Translations under genes and position numbers: made by a program
Notes under the pieces: generated by a model
Database searches by the model: none
What the model saw: only the letters and a program-made list of their open reading frames with translations
What the model was told of the DNA's origin: nothing
Shown: positions 29,073 through 39,684 of the stretch, in pieces
Layout of the letters: the number at the start of each line of letters is the position of its first letter
How positions within the stretch are numbered: the first letter of the stretch is position 1
Assembly (NCBI GenBank): GCA_934176955.1
Contig: CAKPOS010000003.1
Location: 53,411 to 117,410, forward strand
Reading direction: 5' to 3'
DNA from: an uncultured Bacilli bacterium
GTDB taxonomy: Bacteria; Bacillota_I; Bacilli_A; RF39; UBA660
DNA: 64,000 nt

Positions 29073-29744
29073 ATGGGGAAGGTGATGAGAATGAATACAA
29101 AAAAGTTAAAAAATAAAATACTTTTATGTCTTATTCTAATCGTTATTGGGGTTTCTCTATTATTAAATGATTATGTTGTTGCCAAAAGAGAAAAAGTATT
29201 TAGTGCAACAAATCTAGAATTAACAGAACTTTTAAAAGAAGAAAAAGAAGCAGAAGCAAAAAAACAAGCAGAGCAACAAAAAGAAGAGAAAAAAGAGGAA
29301 CAACAACCACAACAACCAGTAACAACTAATAATAATTATGAAACTTATGCGGGAATATTAGAAATTCCTAAAATTAGTTTTAATAAAGGTTTTTATCAAA
29401 AAGAATCATCACTAAACAATGTAAAATTTAACTTAAAAGTATTAGATTCATCTAGTTATCCAGATGAAAAAAACGGAAATACCATTATTATTGGTCATTC
29501 TGGAAATTATAGTAATAGTTACTTTGGAAATTTATATCAATTAGTAGTAGGAGATACAGCAACCATTACTTATCAAAATAAAAAATATACTTATAAAATT
29601 GTTAATATTTATGATGATACCAAAGATGGAACGGTAACAATTTATCGTGATGAAAGTAAAACTTGCTTAACTTTAATTACCTGTACAAAAGATGATGAAA
29701 CAAAGCAAACGATTTATATATTTGAATTAGAAAGTGTTGAGTAG
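29073..29744 (+). CDS. sortase family transpeptidase
   Basis: N-terminal TM anchor, IIIGHSG histidine and TLITC active-site motif. The start may be ATG 29085 or 29091. Confidence 0.8.
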   Translation: MGKVMRMNTKKLKNKILLCLILIVIGVSLLLNDYVVAKREKVFSATNLELTELLKEEKEAEAKKQAEQQKEEKKEEQQPQQPVTTNNNYETYAGILEIPKISFNKGFYQKESSLNNVKFNLKVLDSSSYPDEKNGNTIIIGHSGNYSNSYFGNLYQLVVGDTATITYQNKKYTYKIVNIYDDTKDGTVTIYRDESKTCLTLITCTKDDETKQTIYIFELESVE

Positions 29745-29755
29745 GGGGGATAAAA

Positions 29756-30979
29756 ATGAAGTATACAAGTATTTTTGAAAAATTATTTAGTTTAATTTCA
29801 ATAATTAATACTACTTGGATTAACTTAGTATTTTTAGGAATTATTGTTTTATCTATCATTTTCTATTCTAGAAAAAAGATTTCTAAAAAGACTTGCTTTA
29901 TTTTATCCACAATAAGTACTTTTCTTCTTATTGGTTATGTTATTTTCAATAATAGTTCATCTTTAGCCACTGTATTTGATAGCATTATGGATGATTTATT
30001 TACCAATATCTATTTCCCATCAACTTATGCGTATTTGTTCGTTTATTTCTTTATGAATATTTCTATTTTAGGAAGTTTAATCAATATTAAACATAAAAGT
30101 ACTTATAAAACAATTCATGGGGTATTCTTTATTATTATCAATTTTCTATTTGCTCTTATTTTAGAGTTTATTGCTAGTAATAAGATTGATATTTTTAAGA
30201 AAACTTCTTTATTTTCTAATAAGAACTTAATTATTTTACTAGAATTAAGTATTATGGTCTTTGTATTTTGGCTACTTACTTTGGGATTAGTATATTTAAG
30301 TACAGTGATTTCTGATAGAATTATATTAAAGCAAGAAAAGAAGGAATTGGAAAAAGACGCACATTTGAAAAATGCAAATGTATTAGAAGCAACAGTAGCT
30401 ATTCCAGAAGAAGTAGGGGAGAAAAATACTTCATCAGTGCCTGCAATGAATACTAATTTGATTGAAAATAATGAGAACTTAAATACAGATACTACACCAA
30501 GTTATCACTTTATTCCAACGATGCCAAATCATTCGATGAATCAACAAACAACAGAATCTATTAAAGATACAATTCCACCATTTATGACATCGTATCCAAC
30601 TCATGAATTTGCAACTCCAGTAAACAATAGAAATGATATCCAAGAAAACAGTTTTGACTTAAGCTCATTTATTCCTAAAAAGCCAGAGAGACAAATTATT
30701 GCTCCAATGAACAATAACAATACTGTTTTAGAGCAAATTTTAAATAATAGTCTACCATATATTCAAGAGAATCCTGAACAAATAAAATTAGAAGAAGAAA
30801 AAAATACGTATACATTAAATGATTATCGAATATTTAATAAAATGTTAAAGGATATTCGAGAACATAATCATAACAATTCTATTACAATTGATAAAAATTT
30901 AGAGTATCGTTTAATTACCAAATATTCAACAGAAACTTATGATCTTTTTAAAAGAATGTTAAAAAATTATTCTAATTAG
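29756..30979 (+). CDS. hypothetical polytopic membrane protein with a soluble C-terminal region
   Basis: About 6 TM helices. The C-terminal ~60 aa resemble those of the next ORF. Confidence 0.55.
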   Translation: MKYTSIFEKLFSLISIINTTWINLVFLGIIVLSIIFYSRKKISKKTCFILSTISTFLLIGYVIFNNSSSLATVFDSIMDDLFTNIYFPSTYAYLFVYFFMNISILGSLINIKHKSTYKTIHGVFFIIINFLFALILEFIASNKIDIFKKTSLFSNKNLIILLELSIMVFVFWLLTLGLVYLSTVISDRIILKQEKKELEKDAHLKNANVLEATVAIPEEVGEKNTSSVPAMNTNLIENNENLNTDTTPSYHFIPTMPNHSMNQQTTESIKDTIPPFMTSYPTHEFATPVNNRNDIQENSFDLSSFIPKKPERQIIAPMNNNNTVLEQILNNSLPYIQENPEQIKLEEEKNTYTLNDYRIFNKMLKDIREHNHNNSITIDKNLEYRLITKYSTETYDLFKRMLKNYSN

Positions 30980-30996
30980 TAGGAGGTGTATGAAAA

Positions 30997-31911
30997 ATGT
31001 TAAAAGAATTATTATCGACTAATCCTTGGTTACTTATTTTAGAAATTTTATTTTGGATAGTTGCTATGTTATTTATGGATAAAAAGAATTTAGAGAAAAA
31101 ATATAAAGTAATTTTTACTATAGGGTATATCATTATCAGTATTTTAACATTCTCCTACCTTAATGGACTTGTTGTCAATATCTTTAAATTAAAATATTTA
31201 TCGGTAAAAACTTATTTAATTGTTATTGTGATAGTGAATGCCATTAGTTTATTTACGATGAATAAAAAAATAAAGCCTATTTATTCTGCATTAAATTATA
31301 TTTTATTTATTACGATGATTATTATATTAGGTTCAACAATTGCAATTATTTTAGGAAATAAAATCCCTGTTTTTTATGTGATGGATGTAAATAATGCGGT
31401 AAATTTTATTGATCTTAGTATGATTATTTTCATTTTCTATTTAATTTGTCTTTGTCTTACTTATATTGGATATTCTTTCTTTGAAAATAAGGAAGAAATT
31501 CAAGAAAAAAGCAAAGAAAAATTTACTTTATGGAAAAAAGAAAAAGAGAATAAGAAAAAGCAGTTATCCTTTGTGAAAAAGAAAAAAGAATCTATTCCTT
31601 CTATAACGAAAGAAGAATTATTAATGCATGATAGAACGATTCCTCTTTATATTCATGATGAAGATTGTAGTATTATTTTTGAAGATAGTAATACAGAAAA
31701 TATCTACCAAAATTATCAAATATTAGAGCATGATATTCATGCTAAAATGGTTAATGGATATACGTTAGAAGAGAATAAAATGTTAAAAAATATTTGCTTA
31801 AAATTACAAGTTACTAGATTGGCTAATATTGATATGAATAATGTTAGTATTTTAAATAAAATTAGTATTGAAGAATATCAATTATTAAGAAATATATTTA
31901 ATTTAAATTAA
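30997..31911 (+). CDS. hypothetical polytopic membrane protein (paralogous C-terminus)
   Basis: About 6 TM helices. The C-terminal GYTLEENKMLKNI...SIEEYQLLRNIF compares with YTLNDYRIFNKMLK...STETYDLFKRML in the previous ORF. Confidence 0.55.
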   Translation: MLKELLSTNPWLLILEILFWIVAMLFMDKKNLEKKYKVIFTIGYIIISILTFSYLNGLVVNIFKLKYLSVKTYLIVIVIVNAISLFTMNKKIKPIYSALNYILFITMIIILGSTIAIILGNKIPVFYVMDVNNAVNFIDLSMIIFIFYLICLCLTYIGYSFFENKEEIQEKSKEKFTLWKKEKENKKKQLSFVKKKKESIPSITKEELLMHDRTIPLYIHDEDCSIIFEDSNTENIYQNYQILEHDIHAKMVNGYTLEENKMLKNICLKLQVTRLANIDMNNVSILNKISIEEYQLLRNIFNLN

Positions 31912-33718: not shown

Positions 33719-33737
33719 AAAAAATTTAATTCCTTTC

Positions 33738-33858
33738 TTAAAGATATATTTTTGTTACAATTTTGATTTTGCTTTTTGAATATATCTTTCACTTGTAGCA
33801 TCCGCCGAAATTTCGATAACTACAATCCTCGTCACCTGATATAGGTCTGGCGCTAGAT
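33738..33858 (-). ncRNA. glmS ribozyme (compact form)
   Basis: The minus strand reads A-GCGCCAGACC...GGUGACGAGGAUUGUAGUUAUCGAAAUUUCGGCGGAUGCUACAAG. An AAGAUAUAU/AUAUAUCUU helix follows. This matches the conserved glmS ribozyme core and lies directly upstream of glmS. Confidence 0.85.
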
Positions 33859-34086
33859 TCCTATTTTTCTCCTTCCTGCTAGGTTAATCTTAATTTTATT
33901 ATATAAGATAAATCTAAAATTTGAAGTAGACTAGACAGAAATTTTACATTAATTGATAAATTCTTTATTTTTTTTGATTTGAATAAAATACTGATAAAGA
34001 TGCTTTTTTATTAGAAAGATTTAAGTTAATAATTTAAAAAAATATGATTATTTGTTATAATATAAGTAATAAAGTAGGTGTTATAT

Positions 34087-37000
34087 ATGGTAGAACATAT
34101 AAAAGAAGTACTAAGAGAATCTGTAAATAGAAAAAATCCTTCTTATGCTAGAAACAATCTAACGGAAGAAGAAAAAGACTATTTTTTTAATAATTTAGAT
34201 TTCTTTTTAAAAGTTAGTAATGAAGAAAATTTTAATAGAGATTCAGTTCTAAATATTATTTCAGAGATGTCCACGCAAGAGAAGGCAATGAAGAGACTTA
34301 AAAATATACAAGAAATGAATCAAATGCAAAAATTTATAATCATTAATAATTTGCCAAACGATAAACTGAAAACAGAAAATTTACCATTATTAGATGATGA
34401 AGATTCTAAGTTTAAGATAATCTGTAATATGGTAGATGATGGAGAAAAAATTAAAGTTTTACCATTATTAAATGATATTGATAGATATGTCATAATGTAT
34501 GGAATGACAGATGATGAACAGATAAAAAAAGGAATCCCCTTAATTGAAAATGAAAAACATAAGGCTGAGATCATACAACGTCTGGGAACAGACAAATTAA
34601 AATATGAGACCATAGATAATTTGAAAGAAGATAAATATATAACAGATGTAGTAACAGGATTGTCATTTGAATATCAATATCATTACCTACTAAAAATACT
34701 GAAAACAGACAATAAGAATGAACTTATATATCAAATTTTATTAGGAATACCCCAAGAAGAAAAGACTAAGATTTTTTCATTGCTAGAGAATAGGGAAAAA
34801 GAAGTAATGGTAATGAATCTATCAAATAATGAAGAAAAAAAGTTTTTTATTGATTTATTGAATGAAGAATCTAAACTAAAAGTACTAAAAAAAATGTCAA
34901 ATGATGAAGAAAGAATATTAGTATTTAATTCTATTTCATCTCCAAATACAAAAATAGAGAATTTGCCATTGCTAGAGAATGAAGAGTCTAAATCTATGGT
35001 AATCCAATCCCTTTCAACGGATGATGAAAAAATTAAAGGATTAAATTTCTTAAAAAGAAATTCTGAAAAATTTAATGTAATCAATACTTTATCAACAGAT
35101 GACAAGAAAATAGAGGGATTAAGTCACTTAGAAGGAGATTTTGACAAAGTTAAAGTAATAAAAAAATTATCAAATGATAGAAAAAAATTAGATAGTTTAC
35201 CTTTATTAACAGATGAAACTCAAAGGAGTGAGGTAATAGAGACTTTTTCAATCGATAGGATGAAAATAGAAGCCCTAAAGTTTTTAAATTCGGATTGGGA
35301 AAAGGTTAAAATAATAAAAGCGTTAACGATTGGAGATAAAAAACAAAATTTGTCACAATTAAAAAATGATAAAGCAAAAACAGAAATAATACTTACTTTC
35401 CCAGGAGAGGATGAAAAAATAAAAGAATTATCTATATTGCAAGATGATTATGCAAAACTTCTAGTAATATATAGCTTGTCGCCTGACGAAAAATTTAATC
35501 ATTTGATGGAGATTAAAAAAGCAGAAAATCGTCTTATTTTAATAAAAAGTATGAATGAAGAATATAAAATTAAGGCATTAAATAAAGAATATGGATTGAT
35601 ATTTAAAAAAAATTTTTCTAACAATTTAAATAATAAATACAGTGATTTACAGCCAATGAATGAAAATCTATTGGCAGAAATTGTTATCTCATTAACTGAC
35701 ATAGAACAAAAAGTAAAATTATTACCATATTTTAAGGAAAACAATGTTTTAAGTATTGTTTATTCTTTAAAAACAGAAACCCAAAAATTAGAGGCACTTA
35801 AATATATTAGTAGTAATACTATAAAATTAGAAATACTTTCACAACTTTCTCCAGAAAATATAACTTCAGGATTAGATGATTTAACATGGTTTAGTAATGA
35901 AGAAGATAGAGGATATAGTAAAAAGTTAAAAATTATTGAAGAATATCAGAAAATGTTAGAAGAAAAAAATGACTATCAAAAAAATGCTTTTGTAAATTAT
36001 ATCGAAAATCATCATGAAAATTTAGAGGAAAGTTCAATAAGTCAGATTACAAATATTCTAAGTCGATTTAGTAAATCTAATTCTTTAGAATTATCTAATT
36101 TAAAAGAACAATTAACCCCATTAGTACTTTCAACACAAAATCCTATAGAATCATTTAATAAAATAGAAAAAATATTTTTAAAAAACAATATTCCTATGTT
36201 TGGAAAAGAATTTTTATGTTTTCAAAACCTATATCCAGAATTTCAAAAAGAACAAGGAGAAGAAAAAATATTTGATTTTACAGAAGGAAGTAGGATATCT
36301 CCTGAACTTCTTCATCCTACTCAAACAAGAAAAATGAAAGTAGTATCAAAAAATGCTACAAATAAAGATATTCGCTTTCAAATTGTATTCAATGATTTAC
36401 TAAGAATTGCCAGTCGTTCAAATAATCGTTCTTTAATAGAGTATCTAAATAATATTGAATATGGAAATACTTTATTTTTAGGAATATCAAAAGGAATAAT
36501 AACGTTTAATGACTTAGATGATAAATCAAAACAAATATTAGATGTTTTTTCCAATCATTTAGCAGCCTTATACGAAAATACTGAAAAAGGATCAGAAGAA
36601 ATTTTTGAAAATTTATCTACTGTGGAAAAGATTGCTTACTTTTCTCGAAAATTTAGTCCGACCAGCAGGTATGATTTACCTGATAGAATTGTTAGAAGTT
36701 TTGCTTATCAAGCAGGAATTGAAAGTTTTGAACAATTTAAGGACATTGTGATAAATTCTGTCCGAGAAAAAGAAGTAGTTTCAAAGAAAAAATCAGAAGA
36801 GTTAAAAAACGGAAAAAAGTTAGTTTTAGAACCAGGAGATTTTATTAGAGGTATAGGGAATATTGATTGCGTGGAAAGTTCTTTAAATAATGGCAATATA
36901 TGTAAAGAATTTTTAGGAACATTTTTGGGGGAAAGTAAATCTGATACGACGCCATTAGATGTTGATTTAACTTTAATTACCGAAGAAAATACGGATATTT

Positions 37001-38553
37001 ATCATAATATTGAAAATACTCCAACAGGCTTTGGTTTTGGTAATATTTATGTCATTTTAAAAAAAGATAATCCCAATTTAAATATTACTCGTGATAAAGA
37101 GGGAAATTTAACAGGTAAAGAATATAATCCATCTAAAGTAGAAGTATTTGGAACAAATACGCAGAAAGGTGGTTATGAAGCACACTGGGGAGCGCGGACA
37201 GGAATTGCTTCATCAGACATAGATTACATTTTATTTAAAGAAGACTTAACAATTGATCCCGAAAATCCATATTCTGAAGATGGAAAAGTAAATTATATTT
37301 TACCTAAATCAGAATTTGAAAAGAAAGAGTATTATGGTAAGCATCAAAATGATTTAGCAATCTTAAAAAATGAAGTAGTAAAAAATGGATTTTATATTCC
37401 TATTGTAGATTTTTCGGGAAAAATTATTTTTACTGATGAAGAGTATCAAGAATTAAAACAAAAGATGGAAGGATTATCACATTATGAAAGTAAAGAGTAT
37501 CATTTAAAACAGCACCAATATAGTGATTACACAGAAAGAATAAAAGGATTGTTAGCTAGTAACAAACAAGAAACAAAAATTCAATCACAAAAAGTATATC
37601 AAGCACTATCTAATATCATTCAATCCATTCCTATAGATGAAAATTCAACTAAAACCTTACAAGCTAAAAACAAAATAGGAATTGATTTAACGCCTGGAAG
37701 TGTAGAAGTATTAGAAACTGGATCATCAGTTAGAGGAACAAATGTTCCATATGATTTTGACTTTGACTATATTTTTAGATTAGATTCTAATATGATTAAC
37801 AATGCCGAAAAAATGCATCAGTTCCGTACAAAAATATGTGAAGCATTAAATATTACTTCAGTACCATCTGGTGAATTCCGAGATGTAGAAGCAACTATTC
37901 CAGGACTAGGAACAATAAAATTAGACATTACTTTCATTCAAAAAAATGATAAAGTAGAATATTCCACAGAAATGGCTTTGCAAGATAGAATGGATACTAT
38001 TTATAAAAGTAACCCAGCAGTAGGAGATGAAGTAACAGCAAATATCATACTAGCAAAACTACTTTTAAAACAAGCTGGCTGCTATAAGCCAGAGAGAAAA
38101 GATTCAAATCAAGGTGGATTAGGTGGAGTAGGAATAGAAAACTGGATTACCCAAAATGGAGGTACCCTAGAAACTGCTGCTAATAGTTTTTTAAAAGCAT
38201 CTGAAGGCAAAACATATGAAGAATTCAAACAAATTTACCATATTCATGATTATGGAAAAAATCACTTGTATAAAGAAAAGAACAAATATCCTTATGATGA
38301 TTTTATCTTTAATAACATGAATCGTATAGGATATCAAAAAATGCAAGAAGTATTAAGAAAATATATTCGATATTTATCAGGAGAAAAAGACCTTTTCCCA
38401 GAGTTAGAAGAAGTTTTAAATGCATTAGAACAACAACAAGAAAAAGAAGTAACAATTACACATAGTAGAGGAATAGTTTCTTTCTTTATCTTAATTAGTT
38501 TAAGTTTATTGATTTCTATCATAACCATTATTGATATCCTTTTAAGAAAATAG
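34087..38553 (+). CDS. giant repeat-containing protein with a Pol-beta-type nucleotidyltransferase signature and a C-terminal TM anchor
   Basis: AGGTG RBS 7 nt before ATG 34087; the track start is 34078. Carries a 26-aa repeat array, GSSVRGT...DFDFD and a terminal hydrophobic helix followed by RK. Confidence 0.75.
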   Translation: MVEHIKEVLRESVNRKNPSYARNNLTEEEKDYFFNNLDFFLKVSNEENFNRDSVLNIISEMSTQEKAMKRLKNIQEMNQMQKFIIINNLPNDKLKTENLPLLDDEDSKFKIICNMVDDGEKIKVLPLLNDIDRYVIMYGMTDDEQIKKGIPLIENEKHKAEIIQRLGTDKLKYETIDNLKEDKYITDVVTGLSFEYQYHYLLKILKTDNKNELIYQILLGIPQEEKTKIFSLLENREKEVMVMNLSNNEEKKFFIDLLNEESKLKVLKKMSNDEERILVFNSISSPNTKIENLPLLENEESKSMVIQSLSTDDEKIKGLNFLKRNSEKFNVINTLSTDDKKIEGLSHLEGDFDKVKVIKKLSNDRKKLDSLPLLTDETQRSEVIETFSIDRMKIEALKFLNSDWEKVKIIKALTIGDKKQNLSQLKNDKAKTEIILTFPGEDEKIKELSILQDDYAKLLVIYSLSPDEKFNHLMEIKKAENRLILIKSMNEEYKIKALNKEYGLIFKKNFSNNLNNKYSDLQPMNENLLAEIVISLTDIEQKVKLLPYFKENNVLSIVYSLKTETQKLEALKYISSNTIKLEILSQLSPENITSGLDDLTWFSNEEDRGYSKKLKIIEEYQKMLEEKNDYQKNAFVNYIENHHENLEESSISQITNILSRFSKSNSLELSNLKEQLTPLVLSTQNPIESFNKIEKIFLKNNIPMFGKEFLCFQNLYPEFQKEQGEEKIFDFTEGSRISPELLHPTQTRKMKVVSKNATNKDIRFQIVFNDLLRIASRSNNRSLIEYLNNIEYGNTLFLGISKGIITFNDLDDKSKQILDVFSNHLAALYENTEKGSEEIFENLSTVEKIAYFSRKFSPTSRYDLPDRIVRSFAYQAGIESFEQFKDIVINSVREKEVVSKKKSEELKNGKKLVLEPGDFIRGIGNIDCVESSLNNGNICKEFLGTFLGESKSDTTPLDVDLTLITEENTDIYHNIENTPTGFGFGNIYVILKKDNPNLNITRDKEGNLTGKEYNPSKVEVFGTNTQKGGYEAHWGARTGIASSDIDYILFKEDLTIDPENPYSEDGKVNYILPKSEFEKKEYYGKHQNDLAILKNEVVKNGFYIPIVDFSGKIIFTDEEYQELKQKMEGLSHYESKEYHLKQHQYSDYTERIKGLLASNKQETKIQSQKVYQALSNIIQSIPIDENSTKTLQAKNKIGIDLTPGSVEVLETGSSVRGTNVPYDFDFDYIFRLDSNMINNAEKMHQFRTKICEALNITSVPSGEFRDVEATIPGLGTIKLDITFIQKNDKVEYSTEMALQDRMDTIYKSNPAVGDEVTANIILAKLLLKQAGCYKPERKDSNQGGLGGVGIENWITQNGGTLETAANSFLKASEGKTYEEFKQIYHIHDYGKNHLYKEKNKYPYDDFIFNNMNRIGYQKMQEVLRKYIRYLSGEKDLFPELEEVLNALEQQQEKEVTITHSRGIVSFFILISLSLLISIITIIDILLRK

Positions 38554-38615: not shown

Positions 38616-39452
38616 ATGGAAAAAAAGAAAGAAGAAAATATAGATTTGATAAAATACTTATCAAGCTTAGGATATGCGAAGAATAAAGCAAAAACTTATG
38701 TAAGGTTAGGTTTTGTTAAAGTCAATGGAAAAGAAATCAATAAATTACCTTATTTATTAAAAGAAAATGATATCGTAAAAATAGAGAAGAAAGAAGAAAA
38801 AAACTATAATATCCATATTGTTTATGAAGATGACCATTATTTAGTTGTAGATAAAGAAGCAGGCTTATTAACGATAAGTACTTCTAATCAAACCAAAAAA
38901 GAAGAAGATACCCTTTATAAAAGAGTAAGAGCATACTTAAACCATAAACATGAATATGCATTTATTGTCAATCGAATTGATAAAGAAACCTCAGGTCTAG
39001 TTATCTTTGTTAAAGAAGAAAAATTAAAAGAACAACTCCAAAAAGATTGGAATACAATTGTTAAAAAAAGAAATTATATTGCAATTGTACCAGGTGTGAT
39101 GACAAAAAAAGGACATATTGATAATTATTTATATGAAGATAAAATGACTTTTACACATTCTACTAAAGTAGGAGGAAAAAGAGCAATCACAGATTATTTT
39201 CCCATCAAAAATAATCATCAATATACAATGCTTAATGTAGAAATAAAAACAGGACGAAAAAATCAAATTCGTGTTCACTTAAAAGAGTTGGGTTACCCCA
39301 TTTTAGGAGATAAAAAATATGGAAGTAGAATTAACCCTCTAAAAAGATTAGCCCTTCATCATGATAAAATCTCGTTTATAGATCCAATTTCGAATAAAAC
39401 TTTAACATTCACCTCAAGCGTTCCAAAGGAATTTTATGTTTTATTTCATTAG
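38616..39452 (+). CDS. RluA-family pseudouridine synthase with an S4-like N-terminus
   Basis: NRIDKETSGLVIF catalytic Asp motif and KNQIRVHL. Confidence 0.85.
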   Translation: MEKKKEENIDLIKYLSSLGYAKNKAKTYVRLGFVKVNGKEINKLPYLLKENDIVKIEKKEEKNYNIHIVYEDDHYLVVDKEAGLLTISTSNQTKKEEDTLYKRVRAYLNHKHEYAFIVNRIDKETSGLVIFVKEEKLKEQLQKDWNTIVKKRNYIAIVPGVMTKKGHIDNYLYEDKMTFTHSTKVGGKRAITDYFPIKNNHQYTMLNVEIKTGRKNQIRVHLKELGYPILGDKKYGSRINPLKRLALHHDKISFIDPISNKTLTFTSSVPKEFYVLFH

Positions 39453-39684
39453 CATTAATCTCTTAAGTCTTTTTTTGTGTAAATTAGATAAAATAAAATC
39501 TATTCACCACAAGTGGAGAATTCCTGAAAAAGTATTATTAACCATCTCTCTTTTAGGAGGATGTTTTGGAATGCTAATAGGAATGCACTTGTTTCACCAC
39601 AAAACGAAAAAGAAAAAATTTTATTTCGTTTATTTATTTAGCATAGTTTGGATTGTTATTTTATTATCAATTTGTTATAATTAA
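39436..39684 (+). CDS. DUF1294-type small membrane protein
   Basis: KWRIPEKVLLTISLLGGCFGMLIGMHLFHHKTKK pattern. Confidence 0.6.
   Translation: MFYFISINLLSLFLCKLDKIKSIHHKWRIPEKVLLTISLLGGCFGMLIGMHLFHHKTKKKKFYFVYLFSIVWIVILLSICYN

Follow-up and report, generated by a model that had tools for sequence, protein, structure and literature searches.

We analysed a stretch of 64,000 nucleotides (nt) from contig CAKPOS010000003.1 of an uncultured Bacilli bacterium of the RF39 lineage (hereafter the window) and, within it, the open reading frame (ORF) at 34087..38553, which is intact and codes for 1,488 amino acids (aa). An earlier reading of this DNA, the original prediction, had described the product as an orphan protein with N-terminal repeats, an unrecognised middle, a Pol-beta nucleotidyltransferase (NTase) signature and a C-terminal anchor. 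The protein instead belongs to a large family which, judged from its alignments, is defined by a C-terminal module of ~800 residues comprising a helical domain, an alpha/beta domain and a Pol-beta NTase. All conservation counts given below refer to 151 divergent family representatives, no two of which exceed 50% identity. The features of the gene are as follows.

34087..38553, + strand: complete coding sequence, 1,488 aa and stop codon (ORF list)
34087..34347, + strand: N-terminal leader, residues 1-87, without signal peptide, conserved in the close clade only (hydropathy and homologue sequences)
34348..35856, + strand: variable array of 26-aa repeats, residues 88-590, ~11 recognisable units (self-searches with hidden Markov models (HMMs); Tandem Repeats Finder (TRF))
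35974..36801, + strand: conserved all-helical domain, residues ~630-905 (alignments A1 and A2; helices only in the AlphaFold2 (AF2) model, with a predicted local distance difference test score (pLDDT) mostly of 85-97)
36802..37524, + strand: alpha/beta domain, residues ~906-1146, of probable ADP-ribosyltransferase (ART)-like fold (AF2, Foldseek and conservation)
37525..38406, + strand: Pol-beta NTase with a helical lobe of the poly(A) polymerase (PAP)/OAS type, residues ~1147-1440 (AF2, Foldseek and profiles)
37720..37767, + strand: NTase catalytic motif G1212-S1213...D1225-x-D1227 (conservation in the representatives)
37924..37926, + strand: third catalytic carboxylate, D1280, in the strand IKLDITF (conservation in the representatives)
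38056..38145, + strand: putative NTP-binding helix K1324-x8-Y1333, together with GGLGGVGIENW (residues 1343-1353; nt 38113-38145) (alignments)
38470..38550, + strand: C-terminal hydrophobic helix, residues 1462-1486, followed by RK, a predicted tail anchor (hydropathy scan)

Residues 620-1458 were modelled with AF2 from a 60-sequence alignment, giving a pLDDT of 90.1 and a predicted template modelling score of 0.90. The NTase region of the model consists of a spine helix, a catalytic sheet and a C-terminal helical domain. The top 50 Foldseek matches in the PDB were all Pol-beta NTases with a PAP/OAS-type lobe (probability 0.97-1.0, ~10-14% identity), among them CdnC, CdnD, CdnE, the A. fulgidus CCA-adding enzyme, GLD-2, OAS1 and cGAS, as well as NF90, TUT4, TUT7 and Trf4. 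The NTase signature noticed in the original prediction, which had proposed this very combination of AlphaFold and Foldseek as a check of the fold, was thus borne out. The sequence ETGSSVRGTNVPYDFDFDYIF, which begins at nt 37714, holds the GS..DxD motif, and its residues are close to invariant: G1212 and S1213 are found in all 151 representatives, D1227 in 150 and D1225 in 149. The third catalytic carboxylate, which the original prediction had suggested looking for, was found in D1280; in the AF2 model it sits on the next strand after DxD, and it is D or E in 148/151. The PAP/OAS-type helix described as following the core is likewise invariant or nearly so, with K1324, E1351 and W1353 each conserved in 150 of the representatives. 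Columns N700, K705, G725, G730, E732 and W734 of alignment A2 are invariant, and columns Y714 and K715, conserved to at least 90% in A2, are invariant in an 18-sequence NTase alignment. K1324 and Y1333 may be the counterparts of a K/Y pair that binds NTP in PAP and class-I CCA enzymes, and the G-[FL]-x-G-x-x-x-E helix resembles the 'GFSGY..ELL' helix of those enzymes.

Profile searches were consistent with the model. PF01909 (NTP_transf_2) scored above its gathering score in two relatives, P0238 and P0223, and a domain-only profile gave marginal matches to CdnE and to an MNT-like NTase across the GS..DxD motif; PADLOC returned marginal 'oligonucleotide cyclase' matches only, over the motif. 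The C-terminal region is therefore a genuine Pol-beta-fold NTase of the PAP, class-I CCA, OAS or CD-NTase type, with a complete catalytic set. Fold similarity at this level does not separate a second-messenger synthase from a 3'-end polymerase or an NMPylator.

The resemblance to CD-NTases, cGAS and OAS1 extends to the GS..DxD..D core, the long N-terminal spine helix and the C-terminal helical lobe. CdnC (6u7b), CdnE, CdnD and cGAS match over 270-390 columns with target-normalised template modelling (TM) scores of 0.41-0.49, and the motif, spelt 'GSxxRGTN...DxD', can be aligned with CdnE. These structural matches, together with the CdnE sequence match and the PADLOC matches, are what would be expected of a synthase that makes a cyclic or linear oligonucleotide messenger for an effector encoded elsewhere, as in the cyclic-oligonucleotide-based antiphage signalling system (CBASS), with a middle domain that regulates and does not catalyse. 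However, the sequence matches cover only the universal GS..DxD segment, the fold is equally similar to CCA, PAP and TUT enzymes, and the middle domain has invariant polar residues of its own, which argues for catalysis. The window NTase also differs from CD-NTases in its low identity to them (~10-13%), in its place near the C-terminus of a 1,488-aa protein, where another conserved domain of catalytic appearance precedes it, in a conserved C-terminal extension of ~90 aa (WDFGxNH...HDNF...GYxKM) that was traced to no known family and in having no CBASS operon or effector neighbour. Membership in CBASS was rejected on context, as the effector, Cap2/3 and HORMA/TRIP13 are absent at the window locus and at four other loci, and also because the PADLOC cyclase matches are marginal and confined to the motif. 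The earlier remark that no effector gene adjoins was correct, and we consider a messenger synthase of this kind improbable.

Class-I CCA enzymes, PAPs, TUTases and GLD-2 share the fold (4x4u, 1r89, 6lbj, 2ikf and 3nyb). Assignment to the class-I CCA enzymes was rejected as well: only ~100 conserved residues follow the helical lobe, the model has no body or tail, and target-normalised TM scores were only 0.31-0.39. Unlike those enzymes, the window protein has no detectable body/tail tRNA-binding domain or other RNA-binding domain, and its family is not a single-copy housekeeping one and occurs in few lineages.

The description of the protein as an orphan was not upheld. A first search returned 23 homologues with identities down to 34%, the distant ones aligning only over residues ~630-1440. 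A profile of the core found 429 proteins in a 90%-clustered database. When 1.84 billion representatives were scanned exhaustively with an HMM, 1,150 clusters (50% identity) matched, 794 with E<=1e-30, so that the C-terminal module is shared by no fewer than 1,150 clusters. This module of ~790 residues is almost always C-terminal, in proteins of 730-6,114 aa that are unnamed or called only 'hypothetical protein'. Searches of the full protein against Pfam, NCBIfam and PDB sequences gave nothing above threshold, the core module has no Pfam or NCBIfam coverage, and the whole-core profile matched no PDB sequence at E<=10. Literature on DUF4116, on ART and NTase fusions and on Saccharibacteria contained no description of the family that we could find, and full-text searches found no fusion of an ART to a PAP/OAS-type NTase. 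The folds that make up the protein are not new. Neither the family nor its three-part module, nor the combination of an OAS/cGAS/CCA-type NTase and an ART-like domain, turned up in the libraries and literature searched, so that the earlier statement that no described family has this combination may still hold.

Among GTDB representatives, the gene is carried by uncultured gut Bacilli metagenome-assembled genomes (MAGs) from human (Hadza), rabbit, goat and deer, by many Candidatus Saccharibacteria MAGs and, in a few cases, by MAGs that bear the label Clostridia, Mycoplasma, Erysipelotrichaceae or Muribaculaceae. More than one copy is present in several genomes. One rabbit-gut Bacilli MAG encodes three full-length tandem paralogues of 1,167, 1,420 and 1,407 aa (L031 1092-13190 = L082 120-12218), which differ in their N-termini and have the same C-terminal module; tandem paralogues are also listed at L083 and L015.

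A few family members depart from the usual layout. Two MAGs labelled Clostridia (L041 5619-10308 and L050 5613-10317) have the gene as a pair of overlapping ORFs, divided in both at core position ~245, immediately 5' of the L-x-DRIVR motif. The split parts the N-terminus and most of the helical domain from the ART-like and NTase part; it may reflect a frameshift common to both MAGs, a programmed frameshift or a genuine two-gene form. P0019 (L085 941-7527; 1,664 aa) has ~30 divergent 26-aa repeats and no tail anchor; its neighbours, which encode a phage-type integrase, a Mob_Pre relaxase, an AAA_25 protein, helix-turn-helix regulators and a Fic-domain protein, mark the border of an integrative mobilisable element. 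In the giants P0270 (6,114 aa) and P0271 (4,932 aa) the module is internal, for example at residues 3385-4071, and P0271 has a transglutaminase-like core at residues 220-321.

The ~650 aa between the repeats and the NTase signature had been reported as containing nothing recognisable. This holds for sequence matches in Pfam, NCBIfam and the PDB, yet the region is well folded in the model, is, along with the NTase, what the family conserves best, and includes a second probable catalytic domain. Its first part, the helical domain at residues 630-905, gave no structural or sequence match and has the invariant polar residues K707, D770, S778, D866 and R867. The alpha/beta domain, modelled alone with a pLDDT of 86.5, has as invariants D918, [KR]921, T955-P956-x-D958-x-D960, E1019, H1033, R1037-T-G1039 and NGFYIP (1100-1105), with D918, T955, D958, D960, E1019 and R1037 kept in 149-151 of the representatives. 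The alpha/beta domain matches the NTase active site in conservation and is therefore very likely catalytic or ligand-binding.

The best Foldseek match of this domain in the PDB was yeast Tpt1 (7yw4; probability 0.98, E 0.03, target-normalised TM 0.67), followed by DarT from three organisms, PltA, pertussis S1 and PARP1 catalytic domains at probabilities of 0.01-0.18. At least four ART families stood among the top 40 PDB matches, and no other fold recurred with comparable coverage. BFVD matches were uncharacterised viral proteins, with DarT and ART-PolyVal at low probability. The elements of the model run strand, helix, strand, helix, five strands, which we take to be the order of the ART core. 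Read by strand order, the candidate catalytic positions are 921 on strand 1 (K in 103, R in 48 representatives), S/T962 on strand 2 (C in one relative) and E1019 at the start of strand 5 (149/151). Catalytic signatures of ARTs are H-H-h (KptA clade), H-Y-[EDQ] or R-S-E (PMC9503650); in the model the candidate residues resemble R-S-E and not the H-H-h of KptA. As in PARPs and some toxins, a helical domain precedes the ART-like domain. Beside this core, between it and the NTase spine helix, lies an invariant NGFYIPVVDxxGKLIFT hairpin (37384-37470; residues ~1100-1128, NGFYIPIVDFSGKIIFTDEEY), which resembles the beta2-beta3 signature of the CBS domain, has a non-significant match (E 0.8) to the CBS-domain protein 9e6q and could be a small nucleotide-binding element.

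Several results weigh against an ART. The assignment draws on one good Foldseek match, Tpt1, and several of low probability. No sequence-level relationship was seen: Pfam scans of the query and 10 relatives contained no ART family at E<=1, the middle-domain profile found no ART among PDB sequences, and a comparison of the middle-domain alignment with E. coli KptA in hhalign indicated no relation (probability 0.1). At the first catalytic position, where R or H is canonical, K predominates; known ARTs have nothing equivalent to the invariant DxD; and GD918F, T955-P-x-D958-x-D960, H1033-x-G-x-R1037-T-G and NGFYIP are extra to the ART pattern. The domain might then be a new fold variant, such as a metal-dependent transferase using the invariant DxD, and the NTase would be fused to another class of enzyme; this is compatible with any of the roles discussed here. 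Foldseek E-values are indeed weak, with 0.03 the best, and the best PDB sequence match of the domain profile was a GT-A glycosyltransferase. We rejected GT-A itself, as this match was non-significant (E 0.07), the DxD motifs were unaligned and the Foldseek list held no GT-A structure. Given the recurrence of Tpt1, DarT, pertussis S1/PltA and PARP1 and the fit of the element order, we think a non-ART domain rather unlikely, and the domain is probably ART-like, a judgement from the model that we place slightly above even.

The match to Tpt1 also bears on a role in RNA-end repair or processing, in which a Tpt1/KptA-like, NAD+-dependent phosphotransferase domain would remove or cap terminal phosphates, a CCA/PAP-like NTase would rebuild or extend 3' ends and the repeats would bind RNA or ribonucleoprotein. 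RNA repair is the setting in which KptA, itself an ART, acts (PMC9503650), and the top matches of the NTase include the archaeal class-I CCA-adding enzyme, GLD-2, TUT4 and Trf4. Downstream of the window gene are genes for an RluD-like pseudouridine synthase, DUF1294, LepA, an RNB-domain RNase and a MiaB-like enzyme, of which the RluD-like synthase, the RNase and the MiaB-like enzyme are RNA-related. Such neighbours are not conserved, no common gene neighbourhood being found across the window locus and four other loci. The [KR]-[ST]-E positions and the null hhalign result do not fit the KptA clade, no tRNA-binding body/tail domain lies 3' of the NTase, and a family with several copies per genome, hypervariable N-termini and a presence in few lineages is unlike a housekeeping repair enzyme. 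We therefore give RNA repair a low probability.

The gene appears to be functional. Twelve orthologues from other, independent metagenome assemblies are each 1,488 aa long and 93-97% identical, and the ratio of nonsynonymous to synonymous substitution rates (dN/dS) in the core, relative to the closest genome-derived orthologue (L002), is 0.19-0.29, from which we conclude that the gene is under purifying selection. In view of the identical lengths and core dN/dS of 0.2-0.3 we rejected a pseudogene or fusion artefact. Recent horizontal acquisition was considered and set aside, since G+C (0.24-0.28) is the same as in the flanking DNA and the rest of the window and no family copy was found on viral contigs.

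The N-terminal part of the gene has a different history. An HMM built from the four repeat units quoted in the original prediction found 7 units at E<1e-3, and none in 100 shuffles of the N-terminal 620 residues; an iterated HMM found 11 units at i-E<1e-4 and 13 down to i-E 0.6, spanning residues 91-584 (nt ~34357-35838). The repeats are thus real, but where ~16 units of 26 aa had been counted we find ~11 clear ones and degenerate units, and the array, placed at ~34330-35640, runs ~200 nt beyond. A strict 26-aa phase is kept by 8 units (residues 285-466), the best-preserved part of the array. In the DNA, TRF finds the 78-nt period only at 34999-35188, with 2.4 copies, which indicates that the array is old and not recently expanded. 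As the original prediction had held for TPR, Sel1 and HEAT, the repeat belongs to no known family that passes its cut-off: profiles of TPR, HEAT, ARM, Sel1 and DUF4116 gave no significant match to the window protein, and the sole repeat-profile match was TPR_COPA_B at 16.3 bits against a cut-off of 33. A search with the repeat region alone (34939-35562) against a word-indexed protein database returned nothing, missing even 97%-identical orthologues, and is uninformative; this is probably an effect of composition or filtering and not biology.

Compared with L002, the repeat region is 36% identical at the amino acid level with a synonymous substitution rate (dS) of 0.92, whereas the three core domains are 92-94% identical with a dS of ~0.13. 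Over the N-terminal 600 codons (34087-35886 against L002 6072-~8000) dS is 0.8-0.9, ~7x that of the rest of the gene. This contrast points to recombinational replacement, or to repeats aligned out of register, and not merely to relaxed selection. The N-termini look recombined, with a breakpoint near residue 600-620, where the conserved module starts. The 26-aa repeat is limited to close relatives of the window protein. Other members have unrelated N-termini, so that across the family one finds 26-aa repeats, DUF4116 repeats of very variable copy number (in P0020 and P0021, for instance), other repeats or non-repetitive sequence.

Hydropathy analysis confirmed the C-terminal hydrophobic helix ending in RK. 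A 19-residue segment from residue 1462 is free of charged residues and of N, Q, H and P, and the hydrophobic stretch up to residue 1486 holds one Asp. The window protein is accordingly predicted from its sequence to be tail-anchored with its bulk in the cytoplasm. Such an anchor occurs in 13 of the representatives, the window protein included, and an N-terminal hydrophobic segment or signal peptide in none. The earlier phrase 'membrane-tethered, repeat-scaffolded' hence describes the lineage of the window protein and not the family, in which the anchor is infrequent and the N-termini are unrelated. A sortase sorting signal, considered on account of a sortase gene 5 kb upstream, was rejected for lack of LPXTG and of an N-terminal signal peptide. 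In tail-anchored members a short basic-Gly motif (HSRG, YSRG, NKG, RMG, RTMG, IRG, RTLG or KRG) usually precedes the helix, at residues 1459-1462 in the window protein and also in P0020, P0162, P0163, P0191, P0206, P0207, P0215, P0238 and P0286; it is present even among members otherwise <50% identical.

These termini are relevant to another possibility, that the protein is an effector or toxin delivered by host-dependent bacteria, with the ART-like domain and NTase as payload and the variable N-terminus serving trafficking or target recognition. No signal peptide or other recognisable export signal was found in the representatives, and a C-terminal tail anchor is hard to square with export. 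In polymorphic toxins it is the C-terminal toxin that varies, followed by an immunity gene. Here the C-terminus is constant, and no conserved small gene lies downstream at the loci examined. What speaks for delivery is the concentration of the family in MAGs of Saccharibacteria, which are episymbionts, and of small-genome gut Bacilli, the existence of very large multidomain members of up to 6,114 aa, one of them with a transglutaminase-like domain, and the integrase/Mob/Fic element beside one relative. ART and NTase domains are, moreover, both common toxin domains in polymorphic toxin systems (PMC3482391). On balance we find delivery doubtful, and little probability attaches to it.

Two candidate expression signals lie 5' of the gene.

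34033..34061, + strand: candidate promoter-like site, TTTAAA, 17-nt spacer and TG-extended TATAAT (consensus scan, 10/12 matches)
34076..34080, + strand: Shine-Dalgarno sequence AGGTG, 6 nt 5' of the ATG at 34087 (read directly from the sequence)

Promoter-like sites are not commoner in this region than in shuffles, so that the first is only a candidate. The alternative start GTG 34078 is unlikely because all orthologues begin MVEHIK. Upstream, on the opposite strand, lies glmS with its ribozyme at 33733-33865 (- strand), and the setting between the glmS ribozyme and housekeeping genes was as originally described. Two further observations concern the neighbours: the small DUF1294 membrane-protein ORF (39436-39684, + strand) shares 17 nt with the 3' end of the RluD-like gene, and at 29073-31911 (+ strand) the sortase-domain gene (29073-29744) is directly followed by ORFs of 407 and 304 aa, both of which contain several hydrophobic stretches, are rich in Asn/Glu in the C-terminal half and lack a Pfam match, and which may form a sortase-associated membrane-protein pair.

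Family members join a variable N-terminus to a constant enzymatic module, lack a partner gene and can occur several times in one genome. Because this layout matches single-polypeptide conflict proteins such as DSR2 or CapRel, we rank a role in conflict or immunity first among the functions considered, tentatively, as a reading that we would put at roughly one chance in three. DSR2 combines a Sir2 NADase with a helical-repeat sensor. Like DSR2 and CapRel, the window protein is large, stand-alone and cytoplasmic, with a fast-evolving repeat or variable region and constant nucleotide- or NAD+-using domains, sometimes in several copies; the analogy is one of layout only. Unlike them, it has a different domain order, two enzymatic domains and no defence-island context.

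In the mechanism that we favour, the fast-changing N-terminal repeat solenoid would be the specificity part and would bind a protein or nucleic-acid ligand. Through the helical domain, the repeats would position or switch on both catalytic domains, the alpha/beta domain using NAD+ and the NTase using NTP and Mg2+. Acting at the inner membrane face, the two domains would transfer ADP-ribosyl groups and add nucleotidyl groups to a nucleotide or to the end of a nucleic acid. OAS enzymes 2'-adenylate NAD+ and ADP-ribose in vitro, which makes coupled chemistry between the two domains conceivable. A number of points count against this picture. We infer ligand binding by the repeats, activation and the enzymatic products from the layout, and the array is presumed to be a helical solenoid from its composition; no recognisable defence island surrounds the gene in the window, and the lack of viral-contig copies noted above belongs here too. 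Taken as a whole, the anatomy together with a stand-alone cytoplasmic sensor or scaffold plus enzyme acting in conflict is a proposal that we hold at a little less than an even chance.

A more far-reaching version is that these proteins are an unrecognised class of single-polypeptide immune or conflict proteins in small-genome symbionts, namely gut Bacilli and Saccharibacteria, in which a recombining repeat receptor switches on an ART and OAS/cGAS-like NTase pair that makes a new product. We regard this as unlikely, at about one chance in five. Its product could be, for example, an ADP-ribose-linked or nucleotidylated nucleic-acid end, or an NAD-derived oligonucleotide signal. Animals use PARPs and OAS/cGAS separately in antiviral defence, and the class, if real, would be a bacterial fusion of PARP-type and OAS/cGAS-type enzymes.

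Whatever its chemistry, the module marks more than 1,000 sequence clusters in gut and oral microbiota, with no Pfam or NCBIfam model, name or solved structure. Its enzymology can be tested directly, given a model of high confidence and a limited set of invariant residues. Family genes rank among the largest in organisms with very small genomes, and that reduced genomes keep several copies of 4-5 kb with recombination-swapped N-termini suggests an important, probably conflict-related function, one that matters for lineages whose biology is largely obscure, such as the RF39-like Bacilli and the Saccharibacteria.

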